IMG/VR virus record: IMGVR_UViG_3300045285_000136
Coordinates: 2,816-66,815 of that record
DNA from: a virus
Taxonomy: Duplodnaviria > Caudoviricetes
Direction: 5' to 3' (one strand)
DNA: 64,000 nucleotides
The notes under the pieces were generated by a model, which was not told the DNA's origin, made no database searches, and saw nothing but the letters and a program-made list of their open reading frames with translations. Position numbers and translations under genes: made by a program. This document shows, piece by piece, positions 8,456-61,825 of the stretch. The first letter of the stretch is position 1. The number at the start of each line of letters is the position of its first letter.

Positions 8456-8470
8456 TTACTCCCGGAGTAA
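8456..8470. promoter_or_regulatory. Perfect 15-bp palindrome TTACTCC-C-GGAGTAA (putative operator/RBS)
   Basis: Between capsid stop and next ATG; one of 28 copies. Confidence 0.75.
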
Positions 8471-8471
8471 G

Positions 8472-9413
8472 TTAACCCCTGATGGCATACAGCTCGGCAA
8501 TCGCAATGCCGTCGAGCACCTTGGCGCCGTACACCTGCAGCCCGCGCAAGAGCGTGGAGAACGAACGCTCCGAACGCATGGTCTCCATCTTGGTGATCTG
8601 GCTGGCGAACGTCAGCCCGTGCGGATGCCCTGCGAAGATCCGGAACGCATTGGTCGCGCCCTCGGTCGCCGTCGGCAGCAGGTTCGACGAGTAGAGCGTG
8701 AACCGGTCGATCATCCCCAGGCGCCCGTTGCGCATGAGGGACACGCCGTCGCCCGAAATACTCGCGTTGCGCAGATCGCTCTTCTTGATGAGCGCCGCCA
8801 CCCATGGCGGGATGACGATCCAGCGCCCCGTCTCCGGGATGTTCTGCTCGTCCAGACACGTGCCCAGGTCCACGATCGAGTCCAGCACGTTGATCGGTGT
8901 GAGCGCGATCGGCGCACCCGTCGCACCAAGGTTGATGTTCAGCGAGATTTTGCCCGCCGTGGCGCCCTTGTTGGAGACGTTCACACCTGGATCGATCAAG
9001 GTGAGCACACCCGTGTCGATGACGATCTTCATCTGCTCGGCGGCATCATCGGACCACAGCGAGAGCAGGTTGATATCCGACTGCACCTCCATCACGTCGT
9101 CCAGCGCCTCGTTGAAGTACTTGGCGAAGTCGATCGTGAGGTCGACGATGTTGGACGACGGCCGCTCGACCAGCAGATCCTGGTTGACCTGATAGTCCCG
9201 GATCGTGATCGTGGGCTTCGTGCGAATATGCACGGTGTCGCCCATGTTCTTGATCTCGCCCTCGTAATCCGTGTTGGCGATCGCGCTCAGCACAGTGGCG
9301 GCGTAGAACTTCTCGATCAGTTTTCCGGACCAGATCTCCGGGATGAACGTCCCATGATAGGCAGGATTCTGGTTGGTCCCCACAAACGGCGTCGTGGCAA
9401 TGGTAATTGCCAT
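8472..9413 (-). CDS. Major capsid protein (P22-coat-like, HK97 fold)
   Basis: FIPEIWSGKL...YEGEIKNMGDTVHI...LRGLQVYGAKV; follows scaffold. Confidence 0.9.
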   Translation of the reverse strand: MAITIATTPFVGTNQNPAYHGTFIPEIWSGKLIEKFYAATVLSAIANTDYEGEIKNMGDTVHIRTKPTITIRDYQVNQDLLVERPSSNIVDLTIDFAKYFNEALDDVMEVQSDINLLSLWSDDAAEQMKIVIDTGVLTLIDPGVNVSNKGATAGKISLNINLGATGAPIALTPINVLDSIVDLGTCLDEQNIPETGRWIVIPPWVAALIKKSDLRNASISGDGVSLMRNGRLGMIDRFTLYSSNLLPTATEGATNAFRIFAGHPHGLTFASQITKMETMRSERSFSTLLRGLQVYGAKVLDGIAIAELYAIRG

Positions 9414-9438
9414 GTTGAGTTGCTCCTATGAGACAAAG

Positions 9439-11088: not shown

Positions 11089-11289
11089 TCAGACGCCGCA
11101 GATCCCGTACGTGCTGGCCTTCATCTTCTGCGGGTTCCAGTTGGTGTTATGCGCCGACCCCTTGCCCTTGGGGTAGGTGCGCGCCGACCCCGTGGGACCC
11201 GAGGATCCGGAATTGGACGCACCGCCGCTCATCTTGAAGTTGGATCCCGAGGAGCTGCTCTCGACCTTGGAGTAACTGTCACTGGCCAT
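11089..11289 (-). CDS. Small Ser/Gly-rich protein
   Basis: TAATG overlap with portal stop. Confidence 0.55.
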   Translation of the reverse strand: MASDSYSKVESSSSGSNFKMSGGASNSGSSGPTGSARTYPKGKGSAHNTNWNPQKMKASTYGICGV

Positions 11290-13484
11290 TATCCGGGTAT
11301 CCCCTGTGCAAAGCTGTTGGGAGGCGGCCCCGGCGCACCAGGACCCGACGGAGGTTTAACCCCCGGCGCCGTGGGCGCGCCAGCGGGTTTAGCGCCCTGT
11401 CCCTGAGCCTGCTCAGGTCCGGGCGGCGGATGACCGGTAGCGGCACCCGGTTGCGGCGGCTGACCCTGCGCCTGACCGTGAGCCGCGACCGCCTGTCCGG
11501 CGGCCATCATCTGCTTCTGGGCGTCCAACTGGGATTGTAGCGTCTGGTCGTCCGGTACGATGTCGTCAGGCAGGCCCAGATCGCTCGAAATCGCGCGCAG
11601 CACGCGCGCCCTGCCGATCTCGCCGACGATCTGCATGTCGATCGGGTTGGCGGTGATCTGCAGGAACTGTAATTGCTTCTGGCGCTCGCTCTCGCGCTGC
11701 ATCGCGACCGTCGTGCCTCTTACGCGTACCTGCTCCTCGCCTATGAGTATCCCCGACGTGTCGGTGAGCATGATCATGTCGTAGAGGTATGAAAGTAAGG
11801 GGTCCATCACGTCCTCGTCGACGTTGGACGCCACCGTCTGTAAGACCTTCTGGGCGTTAGACATGAGCATCGCGAGACCGGAGGAGGTTCGCCCCGCACC
11901 ACCCGAGAGCGATTCGCCCGTAAGATATCTGGGAATAGCGGATAACTCGTCCGCCATCGTATTCACGGCGTTCAGGATTTGAAGCAACTCTCCCACATTG
12001 GAGTTAGGCTGGAAGAAACTGATGGGCTCTCGCTGGTTACCCAGAGGATCTCCCTGCACGTGCCAGCGCTTCCACGGATACAGCTCATCACCTGACTCGG
12101 TGGGGGACACCATCTCGTCGTTAATGACCACCTGAGGTCCGGACGAGATAGAAGCGTTGTTGACCAAAGATCTGAACGTCGCGTTCTGAACCTCCTGTAT
12201 GTCTTCGAGGATATCAGTGAGTGAATGCCCTGCGACGGTGCCGGGGATCTTCTCGAACGACGTGAGAAAATAAGGCACGCGCTGGCGCGGGCTGGGATTG
12301 ATCTGGGTTTTAATCGTATGCCGCCCGACCACCCAGGACTGGACCATATAATCCCGGTCCGGATCGGGTATAAAGGTTTTAGCTACGCCCTGGTCGAGGA
12401 GAAGCGCGCCTTGCACGTTCCCGTTGAATTCCAGGCCGTCGATGAACTGCGAGCGATTGAGGTTCGGATCCTCACGGCCCTCATTGATGGCCTGTTCCGG
12501 GTCCGGCGCATCGAGCCACTCGCGCAGACCGTTCGCATAGTCCTCGAGGCACAGACGGACTTTGTCCTCGTTGTAGCCGGGGAGCCCGATCAGGTCGTTC
12601 AGATCCGCCCGGGTGTAACGCTTACGCTCCAGCGTGCTCGCTTCAGTGATGGCTGAAGCACCGGGCGACCAGTAGAAATCAAACGGGTTCACCCGCTCCC
12701 AGAACATCTGCGGGGTGTTCTGTAAAAGGGGTTTCCCCTGTGTCCAGGTGAGCTTGGGCACCATGCGCACCACAGGGCCCTTGAGTATGGCGAAGGGGAA
12801 CATGGTCAGGTCCAGCAGGAATTCCCCCAGCGCCTGATAGAACCGCCCAGCCACGAGGATATCCTCGACCTTGTCGGACGCCGAATTCGCCTGGGTCTCG
12901 GCGTTGCGTCGGGCAGCAGCCTGTGCCGCGTGGAGAAGTGAGATATAGCGCATGTGCGCCTGATCAGGATCCACCGGCTGACCCGCCATCTGCTGGTTCT
13001 GCACCTCGGTGGAGATCAGCTGGATGATGTTGGTGCGCACCTCCGGCGGTATCGGCGGATCAGGCTGCGGCTCGATCGCCCATGGGCGCTGAGGTCCCAG
13101 GTAAATGTCCCGCAAGAGCGACGTCGCACCACGGCACTTGCCCGCCGTGAGGCGAGAATACACCTCCGAGCCGCCGAACATCTGGATCTGGGAGAGTTTC
13201 TCAGGATCGTATTTGCCCTCGAACGTGCGCTGCGCACGCAGCAGGCGCTGATTTATCGGGTTGGCGCCTACGTTGCGGTGATCGCGAAAGATCATCCACT
13301 GCTGGCGAATCCAAGACCCCAGATCCGGCGGGTCGTTGGATAGCGAAGCGGCGTTACGGCGCGCGTAGTCCGCGCGATCCTGGTCGTCGCGCTGGCTCGG
13401 GGATATCACCCGCAGGAACCCAGCCGCAGCGCGCGAGCTGGCGGGTGGGGTAGAGACCGATAATCCTGCCTGCGCAATAGGCAT
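11289..13484 (-). CDS. Portal protein (start 13484 or 13490)
   Basis: About 730 aa; VNPFDFYWSPGAS, LTDILEDIQ...RSLVNN, GRTSSGLAMLM motifs typical of podovirus portals. Confidence 0.88.
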   Translation of the reverse strand: MPIAQAGLSVSTPPASSRAAAGFLRVISPSQRDDQDRADYARRNAASLSNDPPDLGSWIRQQWMIFRDHRNVGANPINQRLLRAQRTFEGKYDPEKLSQIQMFGGSEVYSRLTAGKCRGATSLLRDIYLGPQRPWAIEPQPDPPIPPEVRTNIIQLISTEVQNQQMAGQPVDPDQAHMRYISLLHAAQAAARRNAETQANSASDKVEDILVAGRFYQALGEFLLDLTMFPFAILKGPVVRMVPKLTWTQGKPLLQNTPQMFWERVNPFDFYWSPGASAITEASTLERKRYTRADLNDLIGLPGYNEDKVRLCLEDYANGLREWLDAPDPEQAINEGREDPNLNRSQFIDGLEFNGNVQGALLLDQGVAKTFIPDPDRDYMVQSWVVGRHTIKTQINPSPRQRVPYFLTSFEKIPGTVAGHSLTDILEDIQEVQNATFRSLVNNASISSGPQVVINDEMVSPTESGDELYPWKRWHVQGDPLGNQREPISFFQPNSNVGELLQILNAVNTMADELSAIPRYLTGESLSGGAGRTSSGLAMLMSNAQKVLQTVASNVDEDVMDPLLSYLYDMIMLTDTSGILIGEEQVRVRGTTVAMQRESERQKQLQFLQITANPIDMQIVGEIGRARVLRAISSDLGLPDDIVPDDQTLQSQLDAQKQMMAAGQAVAAHGQAQGQPPQPGAATGHPPPGPEQAQGQGAKPAGAPTAPGVKPPSGPGAPGPPPNSFAQGIPG

Positions 13485-13531
13485 AATCATAGATTTAGCT
13501 CATGGTGTGAGCCGACGCAACAACTGCGTGT

Positions 13532-14140
13532 ATGGGTGTGAGTATGGACGAGGAAATCATCGACGACCTGCTGGACGGGGTGACAGTGGTCGGCGGCGAC
13601 CCCGAGATGGACAAGAGCACGCTCTATGCGTTCTGCATCGACATGGCGCAGCGGATCCATGGGTACGACACGATTGCCCGTCGGTATGGGTTCGTTGACG
13701 AGAATATGCTGGTGGAGTTCCTGCGCACCCACGCGCCCGTGGTGAAGCGGGTGAAGGAGCTGCGGGCAGTCTGGGAATCCGACGAGTCGGTGGAATTGAG
13801 ACTAAGGAAGCTCGCCGGGCATAGTTTGCTGGAGGCGTTGCCGGACACCGCGTCGATAATGTTCGACCGGCAGGTTACTCCCGGAGTAAGGCTCGAGGCG
13901 CTCAGGGCGCACGCCCGCATCGCCGGGGTGGACTCGCCACCCACGCAATCCAGTTCCAACAACGCCACCGGCGGTCCGGGCGCCAGATTCTCCGTGCAGA
14001 TCGTGTTCAACAACGCCGGCAAGGTCGAGACGATCACCGCTTCGGAACGCCACGTTAAGGAAATCGAGGCTGAGACGGAGATGACCCGCGAGATGGATGC
14101 AGAGGAGAGCTTCGATACGATCATGGATGACGCGCCATGA
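13532..14140 (+). CDS. terS: Putative terminase small subunit (alternative start 13544)
   Basis: Directly upstream of and overlapping terL; helical with FSVQIVF C-terminal strand. Confidence 0.55.
   Translation: MGVSMDEEIIDDLLDGVTVVGGDPEMDKSTLYAFCIDMAQRIHGYDTIARRYGFVDENMLVEFLRTHAPVVKRVKELRAVWESDESVELRLRKLAGHSLLEALPDTASIMFDRQVTPGVRLEALRAHARIAGVDSPPTQSSSNNATGGPGARFSVQIVFNNAGKVETITASERHVKEIEAETEMTREMDAEESFDTIMDDAP
13875..13889. promoter_or_regulatory. Perfect palindrome TTACTCC-C-GGAGTAA inside terS
   Basis: Exact match to consensus. Confidence 0.65.
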
Positions 14141-15537
14141 GCATCCAGTACATACCCCCGCCCACGATAGAACGGTTTATGTTGGATAACTCCTTAGTGC
14201 GGTTCCTTCTGGGTCCTATCGGCAGCGGGAAGTCGATGGGATGCATCATGGAGATACTCAGACGCGCGCGCCAGCAGGCACCCAACGCCGACGGAGTACG
14301 TCAGACCAAATGGGTCGCGGTGCGCAACACGATGTCGCAACTAAGATTAACGGTGCTGGCGGATATACAACAGTATCTACAGCCCATGATCTCGTATTTT
14401 GTTACAGACTCAACTATTCGTATCAGGGCCGGCCTCGAGGATGGATCGAGGATCGAGTGCGATGTGATTTTAATTCCGTTGGATACGAAAGCGGATGTGC
14501 AGAGGTTATTATCCATGCAGCTGACGGGCGCGTGGATCAACGAGGTGCGCGAGGTACCCATCGACGTGGTGAGCGCGCTGATCGGACGTCTGGGCAGATA
14601 CCCGTCGAAGATCTCCGGGGGACCGACATGGTTCGGGTTGATCGCCGACTCCAACCCCTGGGACATAGACAGTCCCTACCATGAGCGTGTGCTTATATCT
14701 CCGGAGGCCAACTGGAAGCTATTCCACCAACCCTCAGGAATAGGACCCTACGCCGAGAACCTGGAAAACCTGCCACCTGGATACTACGAGAACTTACTCT
14801 CGGAACGTGACGAGGGCTGGTCCGAAGTCCACATACGTTCAGAATTCGGTTCGTCGAACGCGGGGCAGGCGGTATTCAGGAGGAGCTTCGACGCGAACAC
14901 GCACGCACGCGACATGCAGACGGTGGTCAACCCGCAACGTCCCATATGCATCGGCATGGATTTCGGGCGCACGCCCTGCGCCCTTATCGGTCAGGTGGAC
15001 GTGTATGGACGTTTGTTGATATTCGAGGAAATAGTTACAGAAGATATCGGTTTGCACCAGATGATCGGCGAGAGATTAAAGCCCAGGTTGTTGAGCGATC
15101 CCTATGTGGGCAAGCGCAACTTCATCGTCGCCGACCCCGCCGGTAACCAGAAGTCCCAGCTGACCGAGGAGAACGCGTTCGACGTGTTGAAGAGCACGGG
15201 GTTTATCGCCTACCCCGCACCCACCAACGATATCGGCCCAAGGTTACTGTCGGTGGAAAAGATGCTGCGACAGACGATATCGGGCGAGCCCGCGTTACAG
15301 ATCTCGCGGATGGGCGCACCCACGTTGGTGAGAGCGCTGGCGTCGGGGTACAAATACCGCCGCAGGCGTGATGGCGGGTTGGACGACAAGCCCGACAAGA
15401 CCCACCCTTACTCGGACATATGTGACTGCTTACAGTATCTGTGTCTGGCGGTCAGCGCCGACATGAGCACACGGGTGATCCGGCGTTTTCAGCCCAAGCC
15501 GGTGGTTAAGAAATTCTCGTCTATGGCCTGGACATGA
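14137..15537 (+). CDS. terL: Terminase large subunit
   Basis: Walker A GPIGSGKS, Walker B AWINE, nuclease GMDFG...ADPAG...HPYSDICD. Confidence 0.95.
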   Translation: MSIQYIPPPTIERFMLDNSLVRFLLGPIGSGKSMGCIMEILRRARQQAPNADGVRQTKWVAVRNTMSQLRLTVLADIQQYLQPMISYFVTDSTIRIRAGLEDGSRIECDVILIPLDTKADVQRLLSMQLTGAWINEVREVPIDVVSALIGRLGRYPSKISGGPTWFGLIADSNPWDIDSPYHERVLISPEANWKLFHQPSGIGPYAENLENLPPGYYENLLSERDEGWSEVHIRSEFGSSNAGQAVFRRSFDANTHARDMQTVVNPQRPICIGMDFGRTPCALIGQVDVYGRLLIFEEIVTEDIGLHQMIGERLKPRLLSDPYVGKRNFIVADPAGNQKSQLTEENAFDVLKSTGFIAYPAPTNDIGPRLLSVEKMLRQTISGEPALQISRMGAPTLVRALASGYKYRRRRDGGLDDKPDKTHPYSDICDCLQYLCLAVSADMSTRVIRRFQPKPVVKKFSSMAWT

Positions 15538-15558: not shown

Positions 15559-15810
15559 ATGATTAAAACGAAATCATATATGCGCGCCTCGGCGCGGCGC
15601 TACAACCGACTGGCCACGTTGATGTACCAGGCGCGCATGGCGCGCAACGTTACACAGACCACGGTGGCCGGCGAGCTGGGCGCGGCACAGACCCAGGTCT
15701 CGCGCGTCGAGCGCGGCAAGGACGTGCCCGACGTCGTCGAGTTCCTGGAGTGGTGCCGCGTGCTCGAACTGGATCCCGTGGCAGTGATCAAACAGGTGCT
15801 GGAAGTCTGA
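15559..15810 (+). CDS. XRE-family helix-turn-helix regulator
   Basis: ARMARNVTQTTVAGELGAAQTQVSRVERG. Confidence 0.9.
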   Translation: MIKTKSYMRASARRYNRLATLMYQARMARNVTQTTVAGELGAAQTQVSRVERGKDVPDVVEFLEWCRVLELDPVAVIKQVLEV

Positions 15811-19523: not shown

Positions 19524-20432
19524 CGAGCGTGTCCTCCTGCAAGAATTCCCGCGCACCCATGGGGAGTGCGCGGGGAGTTGGGGGTAACGAAGCTAAACGT
19601 CCGTACGGGCGGGATTCTAGCGCACGTGCCGGGCGTGCACAAGACATCTATACGTGTAGATATATTACGATAATGCAATGATTAATTTCTGGAGGGGGAA
19701 ATTTTCTGAAATCCTCCAGTGATATAGATTTTAATACAAAATTAACTAAGGCCTGTACCAGCGCAGTCGTATGGGGGGCAGACCTAAAGCGGCCGAGGGG
19801 GCGGCATGGGTCAGGACATCTGGCCCTCCCCCCACCCGTCGGCGTGGGTGGGGTGGGTTACGACGTAGTAAAATCCGTTCTGGACCTAATGAGTGGAAAG
19901 CCCCTGCGCCGCGCAGGATGTCGCTACCACGTGCGGTCCGGGCAATGACCCATGGATTGACCGACAGGCTTAACCATAAGGGATACCATGTATGCGCCGC
20001 GCGTGTAGCAAACGCGCGCCATGCAAGGTGATCAGCGCCCGGTGCTAGGAAGCCGGGATGCGGGATATTCCTATCCGAACAAACTGCAAGTCTACCGTGC
20101 TACGGAGCACAACGTACGTGTGAGGGTGGAAAGGTTACTTTGGGCGAGGCTGGCCAGCGTCATTACGCCCCGGCAAACCTGAAGCAAACAACCATTTGAC
20201 CACGGCGGGGGCTTACGCGGGGAACGCGTAATTGTCAGTGATGCAGTACGTTGCGAGGGAACAGGCGGAGAAATCACCGCTGGGATATTTCCAAGCCGCA
20301 CACGACGGCAAACCAAAAGTAAACAGTCGCAAGCCTGCGCGCGTCCATACGCGCGCCGGCTTTCGTTGTTCTGGCAGACGCCGCGACGCCGCGACGTCTA
20401 CCAGAGCAACCCCTGACTACCGGAGTAAACCA

Positions 20433-20708
20433 ATGTCATCCAAGGTCAAACGCGCGCCCAAGCCGGGCGACAAGCGCCCTGCGCTGGAAAACTTCCGCCC
20501 CGCCATGGGGTGGGCCGCGCCGGCAAGCGAAAAGCTGCCCACAATCTATCCCGCATCCTATCGCGTGAAGTACCTGCCGGCGCGTGCCGCTTATGGCTCA
20601 AACACGTGGGCCATCAAGGGCGGCATGATGGGCGGCAGCAACGGCGCGTGCGCCGGTGTAACCAGCAACAACGGCATTGGCATTGTGCCTGCCGCGTTCA
20701 TCAAGTGA
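20433..20708 (+). CDS. Early hypothetical protein (91 aa)
   Basis: Palindrome/GGAG RBS immediately upstream. Confidence 0.65.
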   Translation: MSSKVKRAPKPGDKRPALENFRPAMGWAAPASEKLPTIYPASYRVKYLPARAAYGSNTWAIKGGMMGGSNGACAGVTSNNGIGIVPAAFIK

Positions 20709-20718
20709 AAGCAAACCA

Positions 20719-20925
20719 ATGAAAATTCACCCGCTATCGGGTTACCCGCTGGCGCTGATGCGTCGCGGCGACCGCCTGATCTATGTCTACGATGCATCGG
20801 GCATCAAAAAGTATTGGTCTGGTTTCAATATCTGGAGTGTTGATCGCCGCGACGCAATTCGCTTCAGTCCCAAATACAAACTCGACCGCGATATCCTCGC
20901 ACGCAACTCGTCGGAGCTTGCCTGA
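20719..20925 (+). CDS. Early hypothetical protein (68 aa)
   Basis: Follows previous stop; TGATG coupling downstream. Confidence 0.55.
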   Translation: MKIHPLSGYPLALMRRGDRLIYVYDASGIKKYWSGFNIWSVDRRDAIRFSPKYKLDRDILARNSSELA

Positions 20926-21008
20926 TGCGATACTTCAAAGTTGGCGGCCTGCGCTTCCTGCGCATCGGTCGCGTGCAATTCTCGTTTTGCATCTGCCGCA
21001 AACGCTAA
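20925..21008 (+). CDS. 27-aa microprotein MRYFKVGGLRFLRIGRVQFSFCICRKR
   Basis: TGATG overlap; fills gap to next palindrome. Confidence 0.5.
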   Translation: MRYFKVGGLRFLRIGRVQFSFCICRKR

Positions 21009-21031
21009 ACCCTAACTTCCGGAGTAACCCA

Positions 21032-21202
21032 ATGGATACCTTCATCCTCGCCATGCTCACGAACGTGGCCAACGACAACGCGCCCGGACCGTACGACCCG
21101 CGCGATTACGAAAACTTCGATCCGAGCGTGCTCCCCCATGACCTGATGTGGGACGATGATGCGCCCCTGCCGGTCGACGCTTTCATGAACCTCTACGCTT
21201 AA
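21032..21202 (+). CDS. Acidic early protein (56 aa)
   Basis: Palindrome RBS; Asp-rich. Confidence 0.6.
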   Translation: MDTFILAMLTNVANDNAPGPYDPRDYENFDPSVLPHDLMWDDDAPLPVDAFMNLYA

Positions 21203-21226
21203 CCTCACACTCCCGGAGTAACCCCA

Positions 21227-22180
21227 ATGGCCAAGACCACGATCACCCTCACTGCCGATCAGATGACCCTTGCCGGGCGCATCCGCGCGCTGGTATCGGG
21301 CGCACTCTCGCAGTCCGCGAACGACATGGCGGACGCATCGGACGCACTGAAAAACGCATCCGAAATCACCAAGAATTCCGGCCGGCTCGGACTCGCGCGC
21401 GAGATTGCCAATCTCTCGCATGATGAGCAATGGAAGGGCAACGACATCGCCGCCGCGTGCGAGTACGCGCGCACCATTGGCAATGGCAACGACAAGACTG
21501 CCAAGACACTCAACACCGCCATCTCCGAGATGCGCCTCTTCGCTAACCCGAACGTGCGCGCGGACGTAGGCACGCTCGCGGACGCCTGCCAGCAGGCATG
21601 GGACGAAGAGACCATGGAAATCGCCTGCGCCGATCCCGAGGATCGTAAGTCTGTGCCCACGCCGATCCGCAACTATGCGCCGCGCGTGTATCACCTGCTG
21701 TGCAGCGTCACGCGCGCCGTCAAGGACAACAAGCTCGACGTATACAATTCCGCCGACGTGGTGTGGTGGGCAAAGGTAAACGACCCGGCGTTCAACCCGG
21801 CGAACACGTTGAAGAAAGTCCAGACCATTATGAAGCAGCTCGACACGATCCGCGAGATCTACAAGACCTGCAACCTCGATGCGGCATCGGACGTACTGCG
21901 CGAGATCGATCAGAAGATGCTCGAGGCGGGCCTGACCAAACCGGTGCACGTAAAGCCGGGGTATGCGCCCCCGGCTTACGTGCCCGCGCCCGTGCCCGTT
22001 GTTACTCCGGAAGTAAATCATCCGGTGATCCTGCCCGTCGCACCCGTGCCACCAGTCACGGCGGCGACGCTGCTCGCCGATGATGAGCCGAGTGCGAGTG
22101 CGAGTGCGAGTGCGGGCGCGCCGGCCGACGGCGCGTACGACTATGGCCATGACGACTTTGCGGAACTCACGGTCGCATAA
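21227..22180 (+). CDS. Early hypothetical protein (317 aa)
   Basis: Palindrome RBS; helical with Pro/Ala/Asp-rich tail. Confidence 0.8.
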   Translation: MAKTTITLTADQMTLAGRIRALVSGALSQSANDMADASDALKNASEITKNSGRLGLAREIANLSHDEQWKGNDIAAACEYARTIGNGNDKTAKTLNTAISEMRLFANPNVRADVGTLADACQQAWDEETMEIACADPEDRKSVPTPIRNYAPRVYHLLCSVTRAVKDNKLDVYNSADVVWWAKVNDPAFNPANTLKKVQTIMKQLDTIREIYKTCNLDAASDVLREIDQKMLEAGLTKPVHVKPGYAPPAYVPAPVPVVTPEVNHPVILPVAPVPPVTAATLLADDEPSASASASAGAPADGAYDYGHDDFAELTVA

Positions 22181-22223
22181 GATAACGAATGATCTTTTGC
22201 GCCCATCTGCACCCATCATATCT

Positions 22224-22258
22224 GTGCGCGTGTAGCGGAATTGCCTACACGCGCGCAC
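22224..22258 (+). terminator. Strong GC hairpin after the 317-aa gene (possible terminator)
   Basis: GTGCGCGTGTAG...CTACACGCGCGCAC, about 13-bp stem; no clear U tract. Confidence 0.4.
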
Positions 22259-22647
22259 GCGTCGACCAGCGCAAAATTTGCGCAGCGTTTTCAGTGGGTT
22301 TGCCCGCCAAACATTACAGGACTTTTTCTATACCGATCTCCGCGCACGCGCTAACTCATTGATCTGAAAAAACGAAAACAGGTTTAGAGCCTATAATTTT
22401 TTGAGAACTGAGAATATGATGACTACGCGCGCGCATCGCCGTCTCACGCGTCTCAAAATGTGAGGCATCTTTGGCCAGGAACGCTCACGTTTTCGTGAAC
22501 ACACTCATATAGGATTACTGTTCCCCCGCTTCTAAGATCTTCCGGCCTTCTAATCTGGGATTATCCAACGTGTTCAATGACATTCTCGCTGCATGAGACC
22601 GATTATACAAAGCCGCGCCGAAAGTTCTATAATTCGGTGATAAACAT

Positions 22648-22676
22648 TTGACTCATATCTGACCCCATGCTATTGC
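22648..22676 (+). promoter_or_regulatory. Sigma70-type promoter upstream of RHH gene
   Basis: TTGACT-N17-TATTGC, followed by a palindrome copy at 22689. Confidence 0.6.
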
Positions 22677-22709
22677 TACCATTCAACCTCACTACCGGAG
22701 TAAATAGTC

Positions 22710-23711: not shown

Positions 23712-23728
23712 CTACGGAGTAATATCAT

Positions 23729-24041: not shown

Positions 24042-24042
24042 T

Positions 24043-44800: not shown

Positions 44801-47800
44801 GTATCCCCTCGTTGTGCTTGATCGACGCATCGAGGATATCCGTCACCGGCTGCATGATGTGATCAAGCAGCGTGTATTCGCTGGCACTCTTGGGTTTGTC
44901 AAACCCGAGGGCGTGCCGCGTCCAGTCGACAAAGTACCGCCAGATCGAATTGCCCTGCTTGCGCGGCGTGTAACCCAGTTCCGCCATGATCTGCCGGAAC
45001 TTTGGACTCGCCTGATGCGACGCGGCGAACGCCTGCACCTCGGGGTTGGTCATCAACCATGTGTGCGTCTCGCGGACATCGCCGGTCGCGTGAACCAGCC
45101 GCGACCACACACCTGGGTCCACCGTCTCCCGGTTCAACCTTGCATGGTTCGCCAACTCGGTAGCGATCGTGCGCAGCGCATGGATCTCACGATGGTTCGG
45201 GTCGGTCCTGAGCAGGTGGTTCAGGCGTTCGGTGGTAACTGAGTGGGCGATCTCATGTAACAGGGTCTGCCCGGTTACCGGCGTGTCCATGTTGATGCCG
45301 ATATGCCGCACGCCGTCGCTGCGTGCACCCGTATGATCGTAATACCCGTGGGTGCCGCGCTCCCCGCTCTCGAGGTTGTAGTGAATGCTCCGGTAACCAC
45401 GACGCTGAGCTTCACCGAACGATATGATGGGTATGTTATCGTTGACACGATCGTAGAGTTTCTTGGCTAACTCCCACAGGGGGCGCTGCTCGGTCTTCAG
45501 CGCGCTGCTGCGCAAGATCGTCTCGAGTGCCGCCTTGGGCGTATAGGCAACCCCGTGTTCCTCGGACGCGCGTATGTCCCGCCGCAGATCCTCGTGCAGG
45601 CGCGGGTCGTTGGCCATGCGCACGTAGCGCGACGAGAATGGGTTGGGCAGGCCCTCAGGTGTGACGCCCTGCTGGCGTAGCACGTCGGGCTCACCCTCTG
45701 CACTCTCAACTGCGTGCCCGACGGGATCGTGGATCTCCTTAAGCGCAGCCTCCAGACGTTCGATGCGTGTTGGATCGAACTTCTTAAGCCGTTCAGCCAG
45801 CTGCTCGGTGCGGAGTTCTTTCTGCTTGCCTACCAGCTTGGTGTTAGCCTCGTGCTCCTGCTGCTGGCGCAACAATTCCTGTTCGAGCACCGGGTTCTTC
45901 GCCGAACTCAGCTCCCGGACAATCCCTTCAGAGATCGTCTCAAGCCCTGGCCGGCGTTGCCGACCACCCTTGCGGCGCTTCCCTGCGTACTCATCATGGG
46001 CATCGGCACCGCTGATCTCACCTCGAGCGATCCGGTCGACCAACTCTTTCTGAATAAGCTTGTAGTCAGTCGTGTTCGGCCGTTGTTCCTGCGTCGCACC
46101 ATAATCCTGTGTGCGGACAGGAGCTTCTCGCTGAGGTTCGGCAGCGACAGCAGCTTTAAGCGAGGCGGCTTTCTCGGCAGCGGCCTCCTTCTTGGCCGCC
46201 TCGGCGGCCTTAAGTGCCTCGTCACGCGTCGCCTTGGCCTTGGCCAGGGCCTCGGTATCCACCGGCTTGGCTTCGGGGAGCTTGGACTTGGCGATCGCTT
46301 CGGCTGCCTTGGGCGCGGTGAGCGTGCCAGGGGGTAGCTCCTCGCGCTTCTGCTCGCGCTTCTCCATGAGCGCCGCCAGCTTCGTCGGCGCAGGCTTGGC
46401 CTCGACCTTGGGCTTTACTTCCGGAGTAACCTCACCGCGCATCTCGGTGATCTCGTTCCCGAAATGCGCACGCTTGCCCTTGTTCCACAGCTCGACGGGG
46501 GTCGCGCCTACTGCGGGCCCGTCGAGCGGCTTGACCATCGTGCGCCGCTCGAACTTCCCGGCGTCCTTGCCCGCTGTATATCGAACACCCCAGGCACCGC
46601 TGGAGTGCTGCGCGATCACCCGGCTGGAACCGCCTTGGGACTGAAAGTCGCTGCCCAGCTTCTGGGCGTCCTCGGCGGATACGTAGATCGTCTTCTCGGA
46701 GCGGGGCTGCACGCCCTGCTCGTCGATGCCGTGCTCGGGGCGGTATGCCTTGTCGCGCGTCGTCGTGCCGTCATCGTGCAGCGTGTAGGTGGAACCCTTG
46801 GCGGTGGTGAACCCGCGCCCCTCGGGCGCCGCGCCCGATTCAAGACCCGACCTCGCGCGCATCTCCTTCGCCATTATATTATTTACTTCGATAGGCGAAT
46901 GTCCCTGCGCTGCAAGCTCGCGCCGCCTGACGTCGGCGTCCTTGCTGGTGGGCGTCACCCCTGCCGCTGTCTCTCCCGTCGATGCCCTGACATCAGCAGG
47001 GGTGACTTCAGCCTGAGGTGTGATCGATGCCCCTGGCTGATCTGGTAGAGGCTTCTCGCCGACGGCCGGCTTGGACTCTACTCCCGGAGTAACTGTCGGG
47101 GGAGACTCGGCAGGAGCTTCGGCGCCGGCGAGCTTGGGACCGGCTTGTGCCTCGGGTGCAGCCTCGACTTTGGCGCTCTCGCGAGCGTGCATCTCGGCGA
47201 TCTGCTTGGTGCTCATCCCCTTGAAGCTGTCGGCCTTGCGTCCGGTCATGCTGACCAGATCGTCGACCATGTCCTTACGCGGGATGCCCTCAGTCGGCTT
47301 GATCGCTGCCGGCTTGGCCGCAGCTGCGACCTTCGCGGTATCCACCGGCCCCGTAGGCGGCGTGAGCCCGGCGGTCGCCGCCGACTGTGCTTCAGCTGAC
47401 ATCGCCGCAGGTGCTGCTGCAGTGCCCTTGGAGGCCGCCACAGCCTGCTGTGCGGCAACCGGTGGCTCACCCGGACGTCTCGGCGGGTTGGCCTCTGCCA
47501 GCGAGGGGAACATCTCCCCCTGGCCGGTGGTGGGGACGGTGGTGGGCGGTGCTTGGTTGATCGGCAGCTCGCCCTGCCGTGCGCCGGGCATGCCCATGGT
47601 GGGCGTGTTCATCGGCTGCGGCGGTGGTACGGGCTCGCCAGTCATCTGCGGCTTGGCGGCGTTAGCGTCTTGCGTGGTCTGGAACAACTCACCCTGCGTA
47701 CCCGTCGTTGGAATACCCGACGGTGCTTGGCTCAGGTCAAGTTCGCCCTGTGTGCCCAGCGCCGCCTCTGTCGCAGCACGTTGGTCACTGGGTAGCTGCC

Positions 47801-52671: not shown

Positions 52672-53403
52672 TTAACCCTCTACTTCCCGTTTCAGGTTCG
52701 CCAGCGACCCGGCGATCTCGTTGACCACCAACTGCAAGCGCGCATCGTATTCGAGCCAGAGCAACGGATGGTGTTTTTTCAGGTACTTCGCCCGGTTCTC
52801 CCCCCACCACGCCGAACAGCGCGCACACTCGGGAGAATTTACTACGTAGTCATAGACCCGGGGTATCTCGACCTTCTCCACTGCGAGGTAAGCGAACACC
52901 TGCTCATGGGTCCAGTCCTGCAGAGGCAACCAGAGTTCCATCTTATCGTGAAGCATGTCACCCGACTTGGCCGGCAGCACGGGCATATCCACCGCCTTGG
53001 TGCCACGTATCAAGAGCGTGTTCCCGTCCTCGATCGTGCGTGCCATCGCAGGGTGCATCAGGTTCGACCAGCAACAATCATATCTGGGCACCAAGCGTGT
53101 GCGCGCCTGCCCCATGAGATGGCCGATCGGGTGCGCCGAAAAGGGCATCAGGTCGGTGGGTAACCCGTGGGTATTGATCCACCCCTCGACGTTGGTCTCG
53201 ATGCGCGTGAAGTTGGGCACCATCTCGGCGATGCGATGCGCACTCGCCCGCATCTCCGGGAGCAGATCTCCCGTGTCGACGTGGTACACCATGATCTTAT
53301 GCAGGTAGTCTCGTAACAGGTAAACGCAGGCAAGCGAATCCTTGCCCCCGCTCGCCATCAGGGCAATCTTCTCGTGACGATCCAGGATCGAATAATCTAC
53401 CAT
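52672..53403 (-). CDS. PAPS/APS-reductase-like PP-loop protein with Fe-S motif
   Basis: SGGKDS, VDTG, CC-X81-CxxC, PLxDW; no C-terminal ECGLH. Confidence 0.8.
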   Translation of the reverse strand: MVDYSILDRHEKIALMASGGKDSLACVYLLRDYLHKIMVYHVDTGDLLPEMRASAHRIAEMVPNFTRIETNVEGWINTHGLPTDLMPFSAHPIGHLMGQARTRLVPRYDCCWSNLMHPAMARTIEDGNTLLIRGTKAVDMPVLPAKSGDMLHDKMELWLPLQDWTHEQVFAYLAVEKVEIPRVYDYVVNSPECARCSAWWGENRAKYLKKHHPLLWLEYDARLQLVVNEIAGSLANLKREVEG

Positions 53404-54097: not shown

Positions 54098-54760
54098 CTA
54101 GGCACGAATAGCTTTCCATAGCACAGGACGAAGTTCACTGAATATTCGCGAATACTCTTCGTCGTTATTATACAGCCGACGGAAGATCGTGTCGTCGCCC
54201 TCGGGGTTCGCGCGCGCGGTTATGTCCCAGCCGGAAATATCGGCGACGTTGCGCAGCACGTCGAACCTGATCGCGTGCGCATATAACCGCTGTGATAGCA
54301 GGAAGTTATCACCCTCAAGGCGTTCATAGTCATACACGAACAGCTCGCCGCCCGGCTTGGTCAGGCGCGCGGCCTCACGTAACGCACCACCCGGGTTGTT
54401 CGCCTGACACAGGGAGTACAGGAACATGCACCCGTCGAACGGTGCGCCGTCCAAGGGCACGTTCTCCATGTCGGCGTAGATCTTCACGTAGCCCGACGGG
54501 CAATGATCCAGCTGGAACCCGCTGTTGTTCAACAGGGTGAACCGCAGGTCCGGGCGCATCGCGCGCATCAGCATGGCCGCCTCGCCGAACCCGCACCCCA
54601 TGTCCAGCCAGTGCGTGTCAGGCGCGGGGTCCATGAATTCGAGCAGTTTCTCGACGTGTCCCCAGTCGGTGTCGGCCAGCCGGTGCCCCTGTAACAAGCG
54701 CAAGCCGTGCGCAAGGGCGAGCTGCGACGAGGAGATCATGATCGGGAGCGGGATCGTCAT
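54098..54760 (-). CDS. Class I SAM-dependent methyltransferase
   Basis: WLDMGCGFG motif I; ALREAARLTKPGG; ATGA overlap with upstream gene. Confidence 0.88.
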   Translation of the reverse strand: MTIPLPIMISSSQLALAHGLRLLQGHRLADTDWGHVEKLLEFMDPAPDTHWLDMGCGFGEAAMLMRAMRPDLRFTLLNNSGFQLDHCPSGYVKIYADMENVPLDGAPFDGCMFLYSLCQANNPGGALREAARLTKPGGELFVYDYERLEGDNFLLSQRLYAHAIRFDVLRNVADISGWDITARANPEGDDTIFRRLYNNDEEYSRIFSELRPVLWKAIRA

Positions 54761-55581
54761 ATGATTGCTGCCGCGCCGATACCCGCGCCCAGCAGCGAGC
54801 CGATACCCGATGACTGGTTCTGTGCGATCGCCGCGTTCGCGTTGAACCCGGCCATCTGGTTCTGGAAGCCCTGGTTCATCAGGTTGCCCGCGCCGGCGAG
54901 GTTGCTCGACTGGATCCCCGCCCACTGCGTCGGCGAGCCCATCATGTTGCCGTAAGTGCTGGAGGTGTTCAGCCCCGACGCGATGCCCGCGTTGCCTGCC
55001 TGTGTCGCGGTGCCGTAGGCCTGGGCCACCTGTCCCGGATACCCGCGCCCGATATTGATCGCCTCGCCCTCGAGGGCTAGTCCGGTGGCTTCACTCTGGT
55101 TGCGCGACTGAGTGCCCGCATTGGCCTGTGCGGCGGCCTGGGAGATGCGCGTGCCCAGGTCCAGCGCACCGTAGCGCGTTTGACTCGGATCAATGCCAAA
55201 GCCCTCGAGCGATTGGAGTGCCGCTTGGCGCTGCGTGCCCATCGCCGTCGCGACATCCGCCTGGGCGGCAGCCGAACGCTGCGAGGCGCGCGCCGGGTCG
55301 TTATAGCCCTGCGCCTCGGCGGCGAACTTGTTCTCGATCGGGTAATAAGTATCCTGTAACCGTTGCTGGGCCTGCTGCGCGTTCTGGATGTTCTGGTTGG
55401 AGCTGTCGATCATCGACTGCATGTACTGCTTCGTGATCGGCGCCTGATCGGCGTATTGCTGCTTCGCCCAGTTCAGCTGATCCGTCGAGGTTTGCCCGGC
55501 AATCTTCGCCGCCTCGGTGGAGGACGCGATCAGGGGACCATAGTCGGGTGCTGCCGGTGCGCTACCCTTGCCGCCACCCAT
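54757..55581 (-). CDS. Ejection/internal virion protein (small, Ala/Gln-rich)
   Basis: MGGGKGSAPAAPDY start and hydrophobic Gly/Ala tail typical of podovirus ejection proteins. Confidence 0.7.
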   Translation of the reverse strand: MGGGKGSAPAAPDYGPLIASSTEAAKIAGQTSTDQLNWAKQQYADQAPITKQYMQSMIDSSNQNIQNAQQAQQRLQDTYYPIENKFAAEAQGYNDPARASQRSAAAQADVATAMGTQRQAALQSLEGFGIDPSQTRYGALDLGTRISQAAAQANAGTQSRNQSEATGLALEGEAINIGRGYPGQVAQAYGTATQAGNAGIASGLNTSSTYGNMMGSPTQWAGIQSSNLAGAGNLMNQGFQNQMAGFNANAAIAQNQSSGIGSLLGAGIGAAAII

Positions 55582-55585: not shown

Positions 55586-56050
55586 CTAGTCCCCTTCGAT
55601 GCGCTGGAGGTTACTCCCGTAGTAACGCGGCTGAACCTTAAGCCACTTACAGTCGGCTTTCGTGAGAGTGAGGATCAGCATGTCACCACCGTCGGCGGTT
55701 ACCTCGGTGAGCTTGGCCTCGACACGGAACCCCATGCGCAGATCGATCGACAGCGCGCGTGAATTATCCGACGCGACCAGCCCTATGCACTTGCGCACGC
55801 CGAGCTGGTTAAACGCGTAATCGTACACCATCCACAGGAAATCCCGCGACGCCCAGTTGGTCTCCACGCCGGCCATGTGCATGATAATGGAAGCGTGCAG
55901 ATACCCGGTGAACACGACGCCGCCGAGTGGGGTCCCATCATGATCATGGCGGCTCACACAATGATCCGTCTTGTCGTTAAACACGCCCCCTACGCGGGCC
56001 ATCACCCAGTCGCCGGCGTCCGGTGCGTTGACGTGTATGCTGCGTGTCAT
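55586..56050 (-). CDS. GNAT-like acetyltransferase of tail operon
   Basis: YAFNQLG..KC.G.V...N.RA......GF..E. Confidence 0.8.
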   Translation of the reverse strand: MTRSIHVNAPDAGDWVMARVGGVFNDKTDHCVSRHDHDGTPLGGVVFTGYLHASIIMHMAGVETNWASRDFLWMVYDYAFNQLGVRKCIGLVASDNSRALSIDLRMGFRVEAKLTEVTADGGDMLILTLTKADCKWLKVQPRYYGSNLQRIEGD

Positions 56051-59481: not shown

Positions 59482-59486
59482 AGGTG

Positions 59487-59501
59487 TTACTCCCGGAGTA
59501 A
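59487..59501. promoter_or_regulatory. Perfect palindrome TTACTCC-C-GGAGTAA at fibre stop / next RBS
   Basis: Contains the fibre TAA stop and the GGAG for 59481. Confidence 0.75.
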
Positions 59502-61544
59502 GCGTGCTTCGAGGGTCGCGATCCGCGCGTTCATCGCCTTGATCGCATTAACCGCTGCGGCAAGTATGGGCGTGTCACTGATACCCTTCATCGTGGTCCC
59601 AGGTTCAAGACCTTCGAATCTGGTCACCGCCTCGGGTATGACCGACTGCACATCCTCGATGACAAAACCAAGGTGCAGGTGTTCAGGTCGTGCTGTATGA
59701 CGGAAGGTCTTGGGCACCAATCTGAGAACTTCGGCCAGACCGTGCGAAGCTTCCACGATATCGGTCTTCATCGCGCCACTGCTAAGCAGGTTCACATAGG
59801 GACCCTGGCCACCGACCGTGTACGCCTGATTAAAGCACAGCGCGTCGTTCGCGCGCATGACCCACATCGTACCGTTATTACCTACCCAGGACATCTGACC
59901 TGTGGCAGTGTTGAAATCGAAATAGTAACCGCCCTGCGCCTGCATGATCCGGCCGGAACCGCCGTTGCCGAACACCATGTTCTGACCGGACGCAAACAGG
60001 GTTCCGCCGGCCGCTACGCTGCCCGAAGCAAAGACATCGGTATCAGCACTCAGCGTGCCCGTGGCGTGAACGTCCGCACCAGTGATAATGGCTTTGGATT
60101 CGATACTACCGGTAACGTTGATCTGGTTGGTATGCAGCGTGTTCGAGGCTATGTCCCCAGGGACCGCCAGATTAGTGGCGGTCAGAAGCCCGGATATTCC
60201 GACCGCGCCCGTGACGTTGAGGTTGCCACCCACGCTGAGCGAGGTGCCCACGGATACGTTAGCCGTCGTCGACAAAGACCCTGTGGCGATCCCGGTGCTG
60301 GACACCGACGTCCAAGACGTAACAGGTGACCCGTTACCATCGGCGGAGCCGAGATGGATGATACCCGCCGTGTCTACCCAGAACCCGCTGGCGACACTAT
60401 GCAACACGTCATAGGTAAGCACCGTAGGGATCGTGCCATCTCTGGTGAGCGATAAAACCCGGCCGATATCGCTGCGGACCTGACCGGTAGCAACGACATG
60501 ACCGGGTGCCGACAGAGTGCCGGCCTGATCAAATAACCAACCTTTCGTTGCGGCGCGAGTTCCCGTTAAAATAGTTACAGCATTAGGCGCGGACGAATAG
60601 GTCGGCCCCGTAAGCTGAATTAAGCCGCCGTCCCCCGCCACACCTGTGCTGGTACGCCTCGCAGCAAGCATGAACAGATCCGTCGCGGCGCTGAACGGTG
60701 TGAGCATGCCCGTCAGGTAGGGCGTGTTGGCGGCGTTCCCGTCGGTCACCCGCACGTCTATCTGGGTCACGCCCACCTGGGGCACACCACGTACCCAGGC
60801 ACCGTTCGAGCGCAGATAGCCATAGACGTTGGTGGGCGCTTCCTCGGTGACCTTCGCCCAACTGAGGCTGCGCCGGCCGTAGTAGAACCCGTCGCTCGGC
60901 GCATCGTGCAGCGTGCTGCCCGTCTGCACGTCCACGTAGTTCTTGGTGGCTGCCTGAAGCGGCTGCACGGGATCCGCGTACAGGCTCAGGAACCCGCCCA
61001 TGGTATCGCCCGAGCGGTTGACCTTGGTGCTCACCTGCAGCTGCGACACCACCCAGTCGGCGTATTGCTTGGTGGCCGCCTCGGTCGGGTATGTTGGGTC
61101 GCGGAACAGATACAACGGCCCCAGCATGGTGCCGCCGTAGATACTTAATGCGTCCAAGGGGATCGGCTGAGTGACAACAGGCACCGCCGCCGGCGGTTGC
61201 CCCGAGATCTGCACGCCCACTTCGAAGGTAACTTCGCGCAGCGTCGTGCCGATGATCTCGAACTGACAGGTATAGACGTTACCCGGCGTGCCGAACGACA
61301 CATACACCTCGACGCCAGTACCGCCGTCCACCAGCTTCACCTCGGTAAACATCAGGGGCGTCGGGTCGTAGGGCGGTGGTGCACCCGGCACGGGGAAGGG
61401 CGTGTTCGACCAGCCGGTCGTGCCAAGGGTGATGGTATGGGTGAGAATACTGGTAGCCACCTCGCCCTCGTCGAGCCAGTCCGACAGGTCCACGGTGAAC
61501 CGTGAAACGTCCGGGTTCTGCTTGTTGATCCGCCCGACAAACAT
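59487..61544 (-). CDS. Tail fibre with N-terminal adaptor and C-terminal peptidase S74 chaperone
   Basis: RFTVDLSDWL adaptor; EAATKQY and QAATKNY repeats; S....K..GFVIEDVQ..PEAV...coiled coil. Confidence 0.85.
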   Translation of the reverse strand: MFVGRINKQNPDVSRFTVDLSDWLDEGEVATSILTHTITLGTTGWSNTPFPVPGAPPPYDPTPLMFTEVKLVDGGTGVEVYVSFGTPGNVYTCQFEIIGTTLREVTFEVGVQISGQPPAAVPVVTQPIPLDALSIYGGTMLGPLYLFRDPTYPTEAATKQYADWVVSQLQVSTKVNRSGDTMGGFLSLYADPVQPLQAATKNYVDVQTGSTLHDAPSDGFYYGRRSLSWAKVTEEAPTNVYGYLRSNGAWVRGVPQVGVTQIDVRVTDGNAANTPYLTGMLTPFSAATDLFMLAARRTSTGVAGDGGLIQLTGPTYSSAPNAVTILTGTRAATKGWLFDQAGTLSAPGHVVATGQVRSDIGRVLSLTRDGTIPTVLTYDVLHSVASGFWVDTAGIIHLGSADGNGSPVTSWTSVSSTGIATGSLSTTANVSVGTSLSVGGNLNVTGAVGISGLLTATNLAVPGDIASNTLHTNQINVTGSIESKAIITGADVHATGTLSADTDVFASGSVAAGGTLFASGQNMVFGNGGSGRIMQAQGGYYFDFNTATGQMSWVGNNGTMWVMRANDALCFNQAYTVGGQGPYVNLLSSGAMKTDIVEASHGLAEVLRLVPKTFRHTARPEHLHLGFVIEDVQSVIPEAVTRFEGLEPGTTMKGISDTPILAAAVNAIKAMNARIATLEARLLRE

Positions 61545-61825
61545 CAGTAGCTCCAACCCTCTGGTGCCGGCAGCTTAAACATATCCTCGAGATCCGGCGT
61601 GGCGAACTGATCAGGATACTCCGGGAGTAAAAACACCACCCGGCGGCGGTCCGGCACCGGCATAAAGTGCAAGCCGACCGGGCTGCGGTTGATCACGAAC
61701 AACCCGATGCGGCTCGAATACACGCTGCTGGACAGCAGATCACCTTCGATCGGGCTGATGCCCACATCGAAGTCGCCGATGTCGGAGATGGATGTGTTGT
61801 CGGTGTCAAAGGTGCCGCCGCTCAT
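61544..61825 (-). CDS. Small hypothetical tail-region protein
   Basis: Coupled between tailspike and fibre. Confidence 0.5.
   Translation of the reverse strand: MSGGTFDTDNTSISDIGDFDVGISPIEGDLLSSSVYSSRIGLFVINRSPVGLHFMPVPDRRRVVFLLPEYPDQFATPDLEDMFKLPAPEGWSY

Follow-up and report, generated by a model that had tools for sequence, protein, structure and literature searches.

The genome of an uncultivated podovirus related to Rhizobium phages raises a simple question: why should one 15-bp palindrome, TTACTCC-N-GGAGTAA (TTACTCCNGGAGTAA), be present in about 30 copies, some of them just before start codons and others deep inside genes? The genome is a 66,815-bp IMG/VR record that is rated complete (IMGVR_UViG_3300045285_000136; GC content 62%). 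We analyzed its positions 2816-66815, a stretch of 64,000 nucleotides that we call the window, and coordinates are those of the window unless stated otherwise. The palindrome is a real feature, it is under selection, and it is common to the whole phage family.

Enrichment of the palindrome

Allowing up to three mismatches, we found 29 matches to the motif in the window, compared with 0.76 expected; in 100 dinucleotide-preserving shuffles the largest count was 4. An earlier reading of the letters alone (the sequence-only reading) had listed 28 copies. We recovered 27 of its 28 start positions, and the 28th (23708) proved to be a 14-bp form without the central base, which actually lies at 23709-23722. 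The three perfect 7-1-7 palindromes that it reported are confirmed, at 8456, 13875 and 59487. Two weak matches (9634 and 32195) are doubtful, and an additional copy is located beyond the window, at position 2275 of the genome. The core ACT.C.GGAGT is invariant in 27 sites.

Half-sites are rarely found alone: 17 of the 20 occurrences of GGAGTAA, and 8 of the 9 occurrences of TTACTCC, fall within a full site. The unit is therefore the palindrome, with its left arm tied to its right, and not merely a Shine-Dalgarno (SD) sequence followed by TAA. Enrichment also stands in the codon-preserving shuffle that had been proposed as a check: 12 copies with at most two mismatches lie inside genes, compared with 0.87 expected (300 synonymous-codon shuffles, largest count 3), and nine with at most one mismatch, compared with 0.16 expected. 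Together, the two kinds of shuffle and the rarity of lone half-sites rule out chance, base composition or "just SD plus TAA" as explanations.

A related sequence, GTTACGACGTAGTAA, is present in a non-coding region at 19855-19870. Its left arm is of the type seen in the related contig L010 (see below), its right arm matches the local type, and the central base is missing.

Start-associated and interior copies

The copies in the window are listed here with their strand where one is assigned; fractions give identical positions in the closest relative, G001 (see below).

8456-8470: perfect copy, 7 nt upstream of ATG 8448 (minus-strand gene 8263-8448) and directly after the capsid stop at 8472; 15/15 kept
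13875-13889: perfect copy interior to the TerS-like gene, read as VTPGV; 14/15 kept, flanks 71/90
20414-20428, plus strand: start-associated, 4 nt before ATG 20433
21013-21027, plus strand: start-associated, 4 nt before ATG 21032
21207-21221, plus strand: start-associated, 5 nt before ATG 21227
22002-22016: interior, read as VTPEV in gene 21227-22180, whose stop is 164 nt further on; 14/15 kept
22689-22703, plus strand: start-associated, 6 nt before ATG 22710 of the RHH gene
22864-22878, plus strand: within the RHH gene, at its 3' end, and 6 nt upstream of ATG 22885
23355-23369, plus strand: start-associated, three mismatches, 6 nt before ATG 23376
23709-23722, plus strand: 14-bp copy without the central base, 6 nt before ATG 23729
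23853-23867, plus strand: start-associated (TAACTACAGGAGTAA), 6 nt before ATG 23874
24382-24396, plus strand: start-associated, left-arm TAA is the stop of gene 24034-24384; 6 nt before ATG 24403
24881-24895, plus strand: start-associated, right-arm TAA is the stop of gene 24596-24895; 7 nt before ATG 24903
25083-25097, plus strand: start-associated, 6 nt before GTG 25104
26474-26488, plus strand: intergenic, 23 nt before ATG 26512; 15/15 kept
27421-27435, plus strand: start-associated, 4 nt before ATG 27440; left boundary of a 74-aa gene absent from G001
27662-27676, plus strand: start-associated, 7 nt before ATG 27684 (metallopeptidase/VWA gene); right boundary of the 74-aa gene cassette
28211-28225: interior to gene 27684-29003, read as GNSGSN; lost
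33793-33807: interior to the PD-(D/E)XK nuclease gene, read as SYSRSD; 14/15 kept
35444-35458: interior to the SNF2 helicase gene, read as LLREQ, one mismatch removing the in-frame TAA; lost
36530-36544, plus strand: start-associated, left-arm TAA is the SNF2 stop; 5 nt before GTG 36550
38937-38951: interior to the primase-helicase gene, read as ITPGV; 14/15 kept, flanks 62/101, same alignment column in both
41670-41684: within gene 41501-41743, the last one of the plus strand, at the convergent junction
46415-46429: interior to the gene for the 2381-aa virion protein, read as VTPEV
47078-47092: interior to the same gene, read as VTPGV; 15/15 kept, flanks 48/90 with indels, same alignment column
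55611-55625: in minus-strand gene 55586-56050, 25 nt short of its stop; the next start (55581) is about 30 nt downstream; 13/15 kept
59487-59501, minus strand: perfect copy whose TTA is the stop (TAA) of minus-strand gene 59487-61556; 5 nt before ATG 59481; 14/15 kept
61616-61630: 72 nt before the stop of minus-strand gene 61544-61885, 60 nt upstream of the start at 61556; 15/15 kept
20414-27676, plus strand: early small-gene array, with a copy at 14 of about 16 junctions, in a repeat unit of about 28 nt (aaccc-copy-c/a-rich spacer-ATG)

Sixteen copies are start-associated, lying 4-8 nt before a plausible start codon: the plus-strand early array (20.4-27.7 kb) contains 14, a further one is at 36530, and two more stand before genes of the minus strand (8456 and 59487). 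At these starts the only SD sequence available is the GGAG of the right arm, and the stop codon of the upstream gene is often the TAA of the left or the right arm. These copies combine a perfect right arm with a left arm (typically TAACTAC) in which positions 2 and 6 are relaxed. On the sense strand their central base is A in eight copies, which extends the SD to AGGAG, and it is never T. Copies are most crowded at the early gene junctions, with 18 sites within 7.8 kb.

The 11 interior copies are nearer to perfect palindromes and have C or G at the centre. Their translations bear out the statement of the sequence-only reading that eleven copies lie inside genes and are read in all three frames. 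Seven copies are read as V/I-T-P-G/E-V (13875, 22002, 22864, 38937, 41670, 46415 and 47078; six are interior, and 22864 is also start-associated), three interior copies as Y/N-S-x-S or YYGSN, and two further interior ones as LLRE or LLPE. At 35444 and 61616, a single mismatch abolishes the stop codon where the right arm would read TAA.

Conservation at the nucleotide level

The closest relative, G001 (IMGVR_UViG_3300045257_000190), can be aligned to this genome over about 47 kb at about 77% nucleotide identity. At the 17 alignable sites, 223 of 255 motif columns are identical (87.5%), compared with 1139 of 1569 flanking columns (72.6%; Fisher p = 1e-7). The motif is under purifying selection at the nucleotide level and not at the peptide level, as the sequence-only reading had argued from the presence of copies in all three frames. 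Comparison with a relative, another check that it had suggested, gave a similar result: most interior copies (7 of 9) are retained in G001, one of them at 15/15 amid indel-rich flanks (48/90), and two deep intragenic sites have been lost.

Sites at equivalent places can also be traced more deeply. The nearest named relative is Rhizobium phage RHph_TM27A (TM27A), whose portal is 52-54% identical and whose gene order is the same; the host group of our phage is probably the Alphaproteobacteria. In a variable loop of the DNA polymerase, TM27A and the genomes G004 and G005 (43-51% protein identity) each have their own variant of the palindrome at the same alignment column, with spacers of 6 bp in TM27A, 4 bp in G005 and 5 bp in G004. 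The left arm of this site is translated as V-T, L-P and Y-R in the three genomes, so selection is on the DNA and not on the peptide. Shared alignment columns are also found in the SNF2 helicase (TM27A and G004) and in a 380-aa protein (G004 and G005).

Variants across the phage family

We found 242 portal relatives in IMG/VR and examined the best 80 loci. More than 50 related viral contigs carry variants of the palindrome. The mean spacing of sites is 1.2-2.7 kb. TTACC-N5-GGTAA or TTACC-N6-GGTAA is present in about 35-40 of the best 80 portal-relative loci, and TM27A has about 50 copies of GTTACC-N6-GGTAAC. Further variants are TTACGAC-N-GTCGTAA (contigs L010 and L009), TTACAG-N3-CTGTAA (L059) and TCACTC-NN-GAGTGA (L043/44). 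The outer bases, (G)TTAC...GTAA(C), are common to the whole phage group; the inner bases and the length of the centre are lineage-specific. Comparison of the variants shows that both arms change in concert between lineages; half-site position 5 and its mirror position therefore switch together across all the sites of a genome. Variant types cluster on the portal tree (23 changes, compared with 37.5 when the labels are shuffled), with the TTACGAC type nested within the TTACTCC clade. The identical sequence TTACTCCSGGAGTAA is found many times in two distant family members, G006 and G007, whose contigs are incomplete (65% and 78% complete, respectively); the large terminase (TerL) of G007 is 39% identical. 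Second enriched words in the relatives (GGTCCGAC and similar) turned out to be collagen-like Gly-Pro-Thr repeats and not sites.

Coupling of the palindrome to start codons differs among these genomes. The proportion of copies located 2-9 nt before a start is 54% in this phage and 64% in G001, compared with 26% for random positions; G005 shows no such enrichment, nor does G006, whose motif is the same as ours. At the junction that follows the capsid gene, where a TTACTCC copy serves as the SD in our phage, L010 has the variant TTACGACAGTCGTAA (TTACGAC type), which is without GGAG and lies 47 nt before the start; it is followed by a GC-rich stem and a separate AAGGAG. We conclude that the ribosome-binding role is a secondary, lineage-specific addition. 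The tight coupling to starts is peculiar to this lineage and one variant is without GGAG, which weakens the role at starts that the sequence-only reading proposed.

The right arms of the L010 and TM27A variants, GTCGTAAC and AAGGTAACC, match words that lie next to each other in the universal 3' region of 16S rRNA (AAGTCGTAACAAGGTAACC). This match is probably a coincidence arising from the common GTAAC.

Duplex DNA or RNA

As RNA, the early copies form no stable structure (-0.8 and -2.1 kcal/mol). The arms differ by 82 transition mismatches, in which G.U and A.C are equally frequent on the sense strand (41:41). There are 475 one-sided departures from the consensus, and compensated pairs number 13, compared with 12.5 expected by chance. 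The non-folding early copies, the even wobble ratio and the chance level of compensation led us to reject an RNA hairpin as the selected feature. The pattern fits two half-sites that are read independently on duplex DNA, in agreement with the sequence-only reading, which had treated the copies as sites on DNA. Its proposal that the central CCNGG could make binding sensitive to methylation found no support: there is no DNA cytosine methyltransferase among the proteins scanned, and the sole methyltransferase is a generic class I enzyme.

A proposed docking site for a symmetric protein

We tentatively favor the interpretation that the palindrome is a docking site on double-stranded DNA for a two-fold-symmetric protein, dimeric or paired, with a specificity that evolves along with the phage lineage. 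Such a protein may be encoded by the phage and may control expression of the early array, through gene-by-gene occlusion or as a roadblock. Sites are retained mainly at gene junctions, most densely in the early array, and also at some constant positions within genes. In our lineage the inner bases have become CTCC/GGAG, and a site lying in a 20-nt junction therefore also provides the SD of the next gene. Copies at such junctions have a left arm loosened at positions 2 and 6, and the mRNA has no fold over its own SD.

Several results weigh against this interpretation. We could not identify the binding protein among the candidates examined; profile searches of other genomes found homologs of the RHH and XRE proteins only in G001; and the ParB N-terminal domain (PF02195) is absent from the five complete genomes scanned (G000, G001, G003, G004 and G005), in a search that matched control genomes. 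The sites do not overlap promoter-like sequences, so their regulatory effect is unclear, and the Cluster O mycobacteriophage study (PMC4351075) ended at this same point with its own repeat; a classical operator layout loses ground accordingly, and the blocking of early genes that the sequence-only reading proposed can be no more than supposed. The centre of the palindrome is 1 bp shorter in 20-35% of copies in every genome, and a centre that varies in this way (including the 6, 5 and 4 bp of the polymerase spacers) is unusual for a rigid dimer and would suit the loop of a hairpin. In addition, the RNA forms of the TM27A and G005 variants would be stable hairpins (-8.1 and -12.5 kcal/mol). The repressor of Rhizobium phage 16-3 reportedly tolerates two different spacer lengths in its operators.

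Of the sigma-70-like matches in 20 kb, the best is TATACA-18-TATAAT at 22604-22633. It is located in a gap of 530 nt, richer in AT, that precedes the RHH gene, and the copy at 22689 follows 56 nt further on.

Candidate binding proteins

The sequence-only reading had named two proteins as candidates:

22710-22892: RHH protein, with a weak NikA-like match and a clear RHH pattern
15559-15810: XRE protein, HTH_31, E = 2e-8

Both are weak candidates, as neither tracks the motif across relatives. They are absent from TM27A and G003-G005, which carry variant palindromes, and were not found in the incomplete contigs of G006 and G007, which carry the identical palindrome. The beta-strand of the RHH protein also differs (G versus R) between two phages with the same motif. 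We therefore rejected both as the shared reader of the sites, and the absence of its domain from the five genomes likewise excludes ParB.

Other proteins fared no better. A 183-aa protein of TM27A (L005, 24225-24776) has three HTH_7-like repeats, with one copy of the palindrome at its ribosome-binding site and another inside its gene, but it has no homolog in the other genomes. We rejected the TerS-like protein because its helix-turn-helix (HTH)-like stretch stays conserved in phages whose variants differ. The 380-aa core protein (36990-38132) has an invariant Cys cluster (zinc), a long Pro/Ala linker and an acidic C-terminal tip; by sequence it looks like a phage single-stranded-DNA-binding protein (SSB), an architecture that is not that of a site-specific binder. 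A 116-aa protein shared with G005 does not resemble a DNA binder, and a Protein Atlas search with a 147-aa core protein was uninformative. The 980-aa DUF927 primase-helicase matches the Rep helicases of Staphylococcus aureus pathogenicity islands (SaPI; 5dgk and 8tch), and its fold model is too poor to use (mean predicted local distance difference test score, pLDDT, 52). The TM27A homolog of this primase-helicase is annotated as a "putative integrase", and the TM27A record also has attL/attR features; all of these annotations look mistaken.

We also scanned 185,579 species genomes with a 17-mer. The matches were scattered singles, at the level of chance, and one unrelated element made of 12-bp tandem repeats in a metagenome-assembled genome (MAG), so a regulon in a host genome was rejected. 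The MAG in question, the GC-rich CWP4-2.bin.134 (JAWOHE01; L208-L248), carries a 12-bp unit (GGAGTAACCCCC or GTTACTCCGGGG) in tandem arrays that are spread over at least 11 contigs. The same 17-mer arises where the unit flips its orientation; the proteins bear no similarity to those of the phages, and the array may be the end of a mobile element.

Alternative explanations

The same docking site on DNA might have a job other than regulation, done by a protein of the conserved core: loading or priming by the SaPI-Rep-like primase-helicase, or a mark of "self" for replication or packaging. We consider this unlikely. It would explain why the outer GTTAC/GTAAC bases are kept across lineages whose small early proteins are not, and it agrees with the mean spacing of the sites, their presence inside genes and the lack of a visible link to promoters. 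Initiators of the SaPI-Rep type carry a sequence-specific DNA-binding part, and the match of the DUF927 protein to SaPI Rep helicases would fit, although with so poor a fold model its DNA-binding domain stays putative. The crowding of sites at early junctions would be unexpected for priming or marking, and the constancy of the HTH-like stretch in TerS across variants speaks against that protein as the reader. There is a small chance that the palindromes serve as tags of "self" that differ between lineages and are recognized by a conserved replication protein, such as the SaPI-Rep-like primase-helicase, as dispersed loading or priming sites, with the switch of inner bases conferring identity on the replicon. 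If so, co-infecting relatives could not use each other's machinery, and the ribosome-binding role would be a later economy. An RNA element, by contrast, would be a translational operator or an SD-sequestering hairpin at early starts, either bound by a repressor, for which RegA/RegB of phage T4 is the model, or opened by translational coupling. The 16 copies placed 4-8 nt before starts with GGAG as the sole SD, the sense-strand A that extends it to AGGAG and the stable RNA folds in TM27A and G005 all point this way, and translational coupling has been proposed for the start-associated sequences of Cluster K mycobacteriophages (PMC3203893). We nevertheless give an RNA element only a slight chance, because the early copies do not fold, G.U is not in excess over A.C, compensatory changes are lacking, the L010 variant has no SD and is far from its start, G006 and G005 show no start coupling, and interior copies are conserved with no start codon nearby.

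The copies could instead be primarily recombination junctions, that is, boundary sequences for the swap, duplication or loss of small early gene cassettes, as the promoter-stem-loop cassette boundaries are in T4-type phages. Copies coincide with the start or end of homology blocks that this phage shares with G001 (21221, 25090 and 27663). In the slot between the gene for a 303-aa protein and the metallopeptidase gene there is a single 74-aa gene here (27421-27676); the same slot in G001 (67,280-67,492 and 1-460; L090/L087) contains a pair of paralogs, of about 50 aa each, with a copy and ACCCCAATG in front of both genes, and the comparison indicates cassette-like turnover. The early repeat unit extends to about 28 nt, and indels flanked by the repeat are known in Cluster O mycobacteriophages (PMC4351075). 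Against this, genes start right after the copies, so block ends are expected there anyway; 15 bp is short for homologous exchange; and neither the long-kept interior copies in replication and virion genes nor the concerted switch of two arms between lineages is explained, so that recombination as the primary function seems about as improbable as an RNA element. The least probable of these explanations is that a host DNA-binding protein reads the sites and that variant type reflects the host rather than the phage. Phages as distant as those with 39% TerL identity share an identical 15-mer and no conserved phage reader was found, as would be expected in that case, but the variants follow the portal phylogeny, the species genomes scanned held only the matches described above, and we know of no alphaproteobacterial regulator with this site.

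Other features of the genome

Genes of the window that are named above or that surround the copies are as follows.

8472-9413, minus strand: capsid gene
11289-13490, minus strand: SU10-type portal
13532-14140: TerS-like gene
14137-15537, plus strand: large terminase, assigned by synteny with TM27A
27684-29003: metallopeptidase/VWA gene
30623-32551: family A DNA polymerase
33242-33949: PD-(D/E)XK nuclease gene
38198-41140: DUF927 primase-helicase, 980 aa
41501-41743, plus strand: last plus-strand gene, at the convergent junction

Other gene products are the SNF2 helicase, the 2381-aa LPD39 virion protein, a 1215-aa SLT protein and internal virion proteins. A PAPS-reductase-like PP-loop protein (52672-53403) and a class I S-adenosylmethionine methyltransferase (54098-54925) sit among the virion protein genes. 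There is no integrase among the proteins scanned, and the gene that starts with GTG 25104 has no Pfam match. A phage collection searched for near-identical DNA gave no match, nor did a search of viral contigs with a single protein, and a literature search on this phage group or this motif found nothing.

A second repeated element, TATGCGCCGCGCGTGTAGCA, is present at two places with 95% identity, and there is also an inverted repeat, TGTGCGCGTGTAG-N9-CTACACGCGCGCA. The positions are 19991-20010, 21674-21693, 22223-22257 and 22418-22443, within or close to the two extended non-coding regions (19.6-20.4 kb and 22.18-22.69 kb). The element may act as a regulatory site of its own.

Comparison with known systems

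The stoperators of phage L5 and Cluster A, to which the sequence-only reading likened the palindrome, are 13-bp asymmetric sites that are oriented with transcription and bound by the immunity repressor of a temperate phage. The likeness lies in a short site that is repeated at many scattered places, often where intergenic gaps are small, and through which one protein could govern much of the genome. Here, in contrast, the site is symmetric and 15 bp long, no integrase was seen among the proteins scanned, and no repressor is conserved along with the motif. Sites of the KorB/ParB type (OB of plasmid RK2, parS, Noc) are palindromes of 13-16 bp with S or N at the centre and one dimeric reader; their arrays number a dozen copies or more, and some members lie within genes or at a distance from promoters. 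Our palindrome is similarly short, dispersed and found away from promoters and inside genes, but neither this phage nor the four complete relatives has a detectable ParB N-terminal domain.

The other analog named by the sequence-only reading, the start-associated sequence of Cluster K, is GGGATAGGAGCCC; it contains the SD core, lies 3-7 bp before the starts of non-structural genes, often includes the upstream stop codon and is conserved beyond its pairing with 16S rRNA, and its function is unknown (PMC3203893). It resembles the start-coupled class of copies and only that class, with its 16 members 4-8 nt upstream of a start codon and GGAG in their right arms, a feature of this lineage alone. 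Cluster K sequences are asymmetric and have one orientation, whereas ours is a palindrome with three perfect copies; they are limited to the non-structural half of the genome, whereas ours is found within or beside the genes of the capsid, the TerS-like protein and the virion protein; and in sister lineages of our phage the motif is not an SD. For both analogs, then, the dispersal of short sites or their placement at starts is alike, but asymmetry and fixed orientation set them apart from this motif.

The nearest analog is the repeat of Cluster O mycobacteriophages (Corndog and relatives), which our palindrome matches in architecture, copy number, placement and conservation. That repeat is 17 bp long, TGTTCGG-NNN-CCGAACA (TGTTCGGNNNCCGAACA), and has about 30-34 copies genome-wide in a mix of intergenic, start-proximal and clearly intragenic places; its positions are mostly common to relatives and mostly away from promoters, indels are flanked by it, and its function and binding protein are unknown (PMC4351075). 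Both have inverted arms of 7 bp, nearly invariant, around a short centre (7-1-7 here). Both have about 30 copies, here 16-17 at junctions and 11 interior. Both keep their positions in relatives, here at most alignable sites in G001 and, more deeply, in PolA, SNF2 and the 380-aa protein. The sequence TGTTCGGNNNCCGAACA and the Mycobacterium host are not shared, since the nearest named relative of our phage infects Rhizobium, and the virion type differs. Only here do copies merge with the SD of early genes, do many lineages have concertedly changed arms, and does the length of the centre vary by 1 bp.

The kind of repeat is already known and unsolved, and this phage family contributes the concerted switching of variants and the fusion with a ribosome-binding site. 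The family amounts to a natural experiment, with more than 50 related genomes in which the arms change in concert, sites at the same place in different frames, and one lineage in which the site is fused to a ribosome-binding site. Cultured Rhizobium phages (RHph_TM27A and relatives) carry the analogous site, so the reader could be fished out directly. Dispersed palindromes with no assigned function have been described in a few phage groups, and finding the reader of this one would assign a job to a recurrent unexplained feature of phages.

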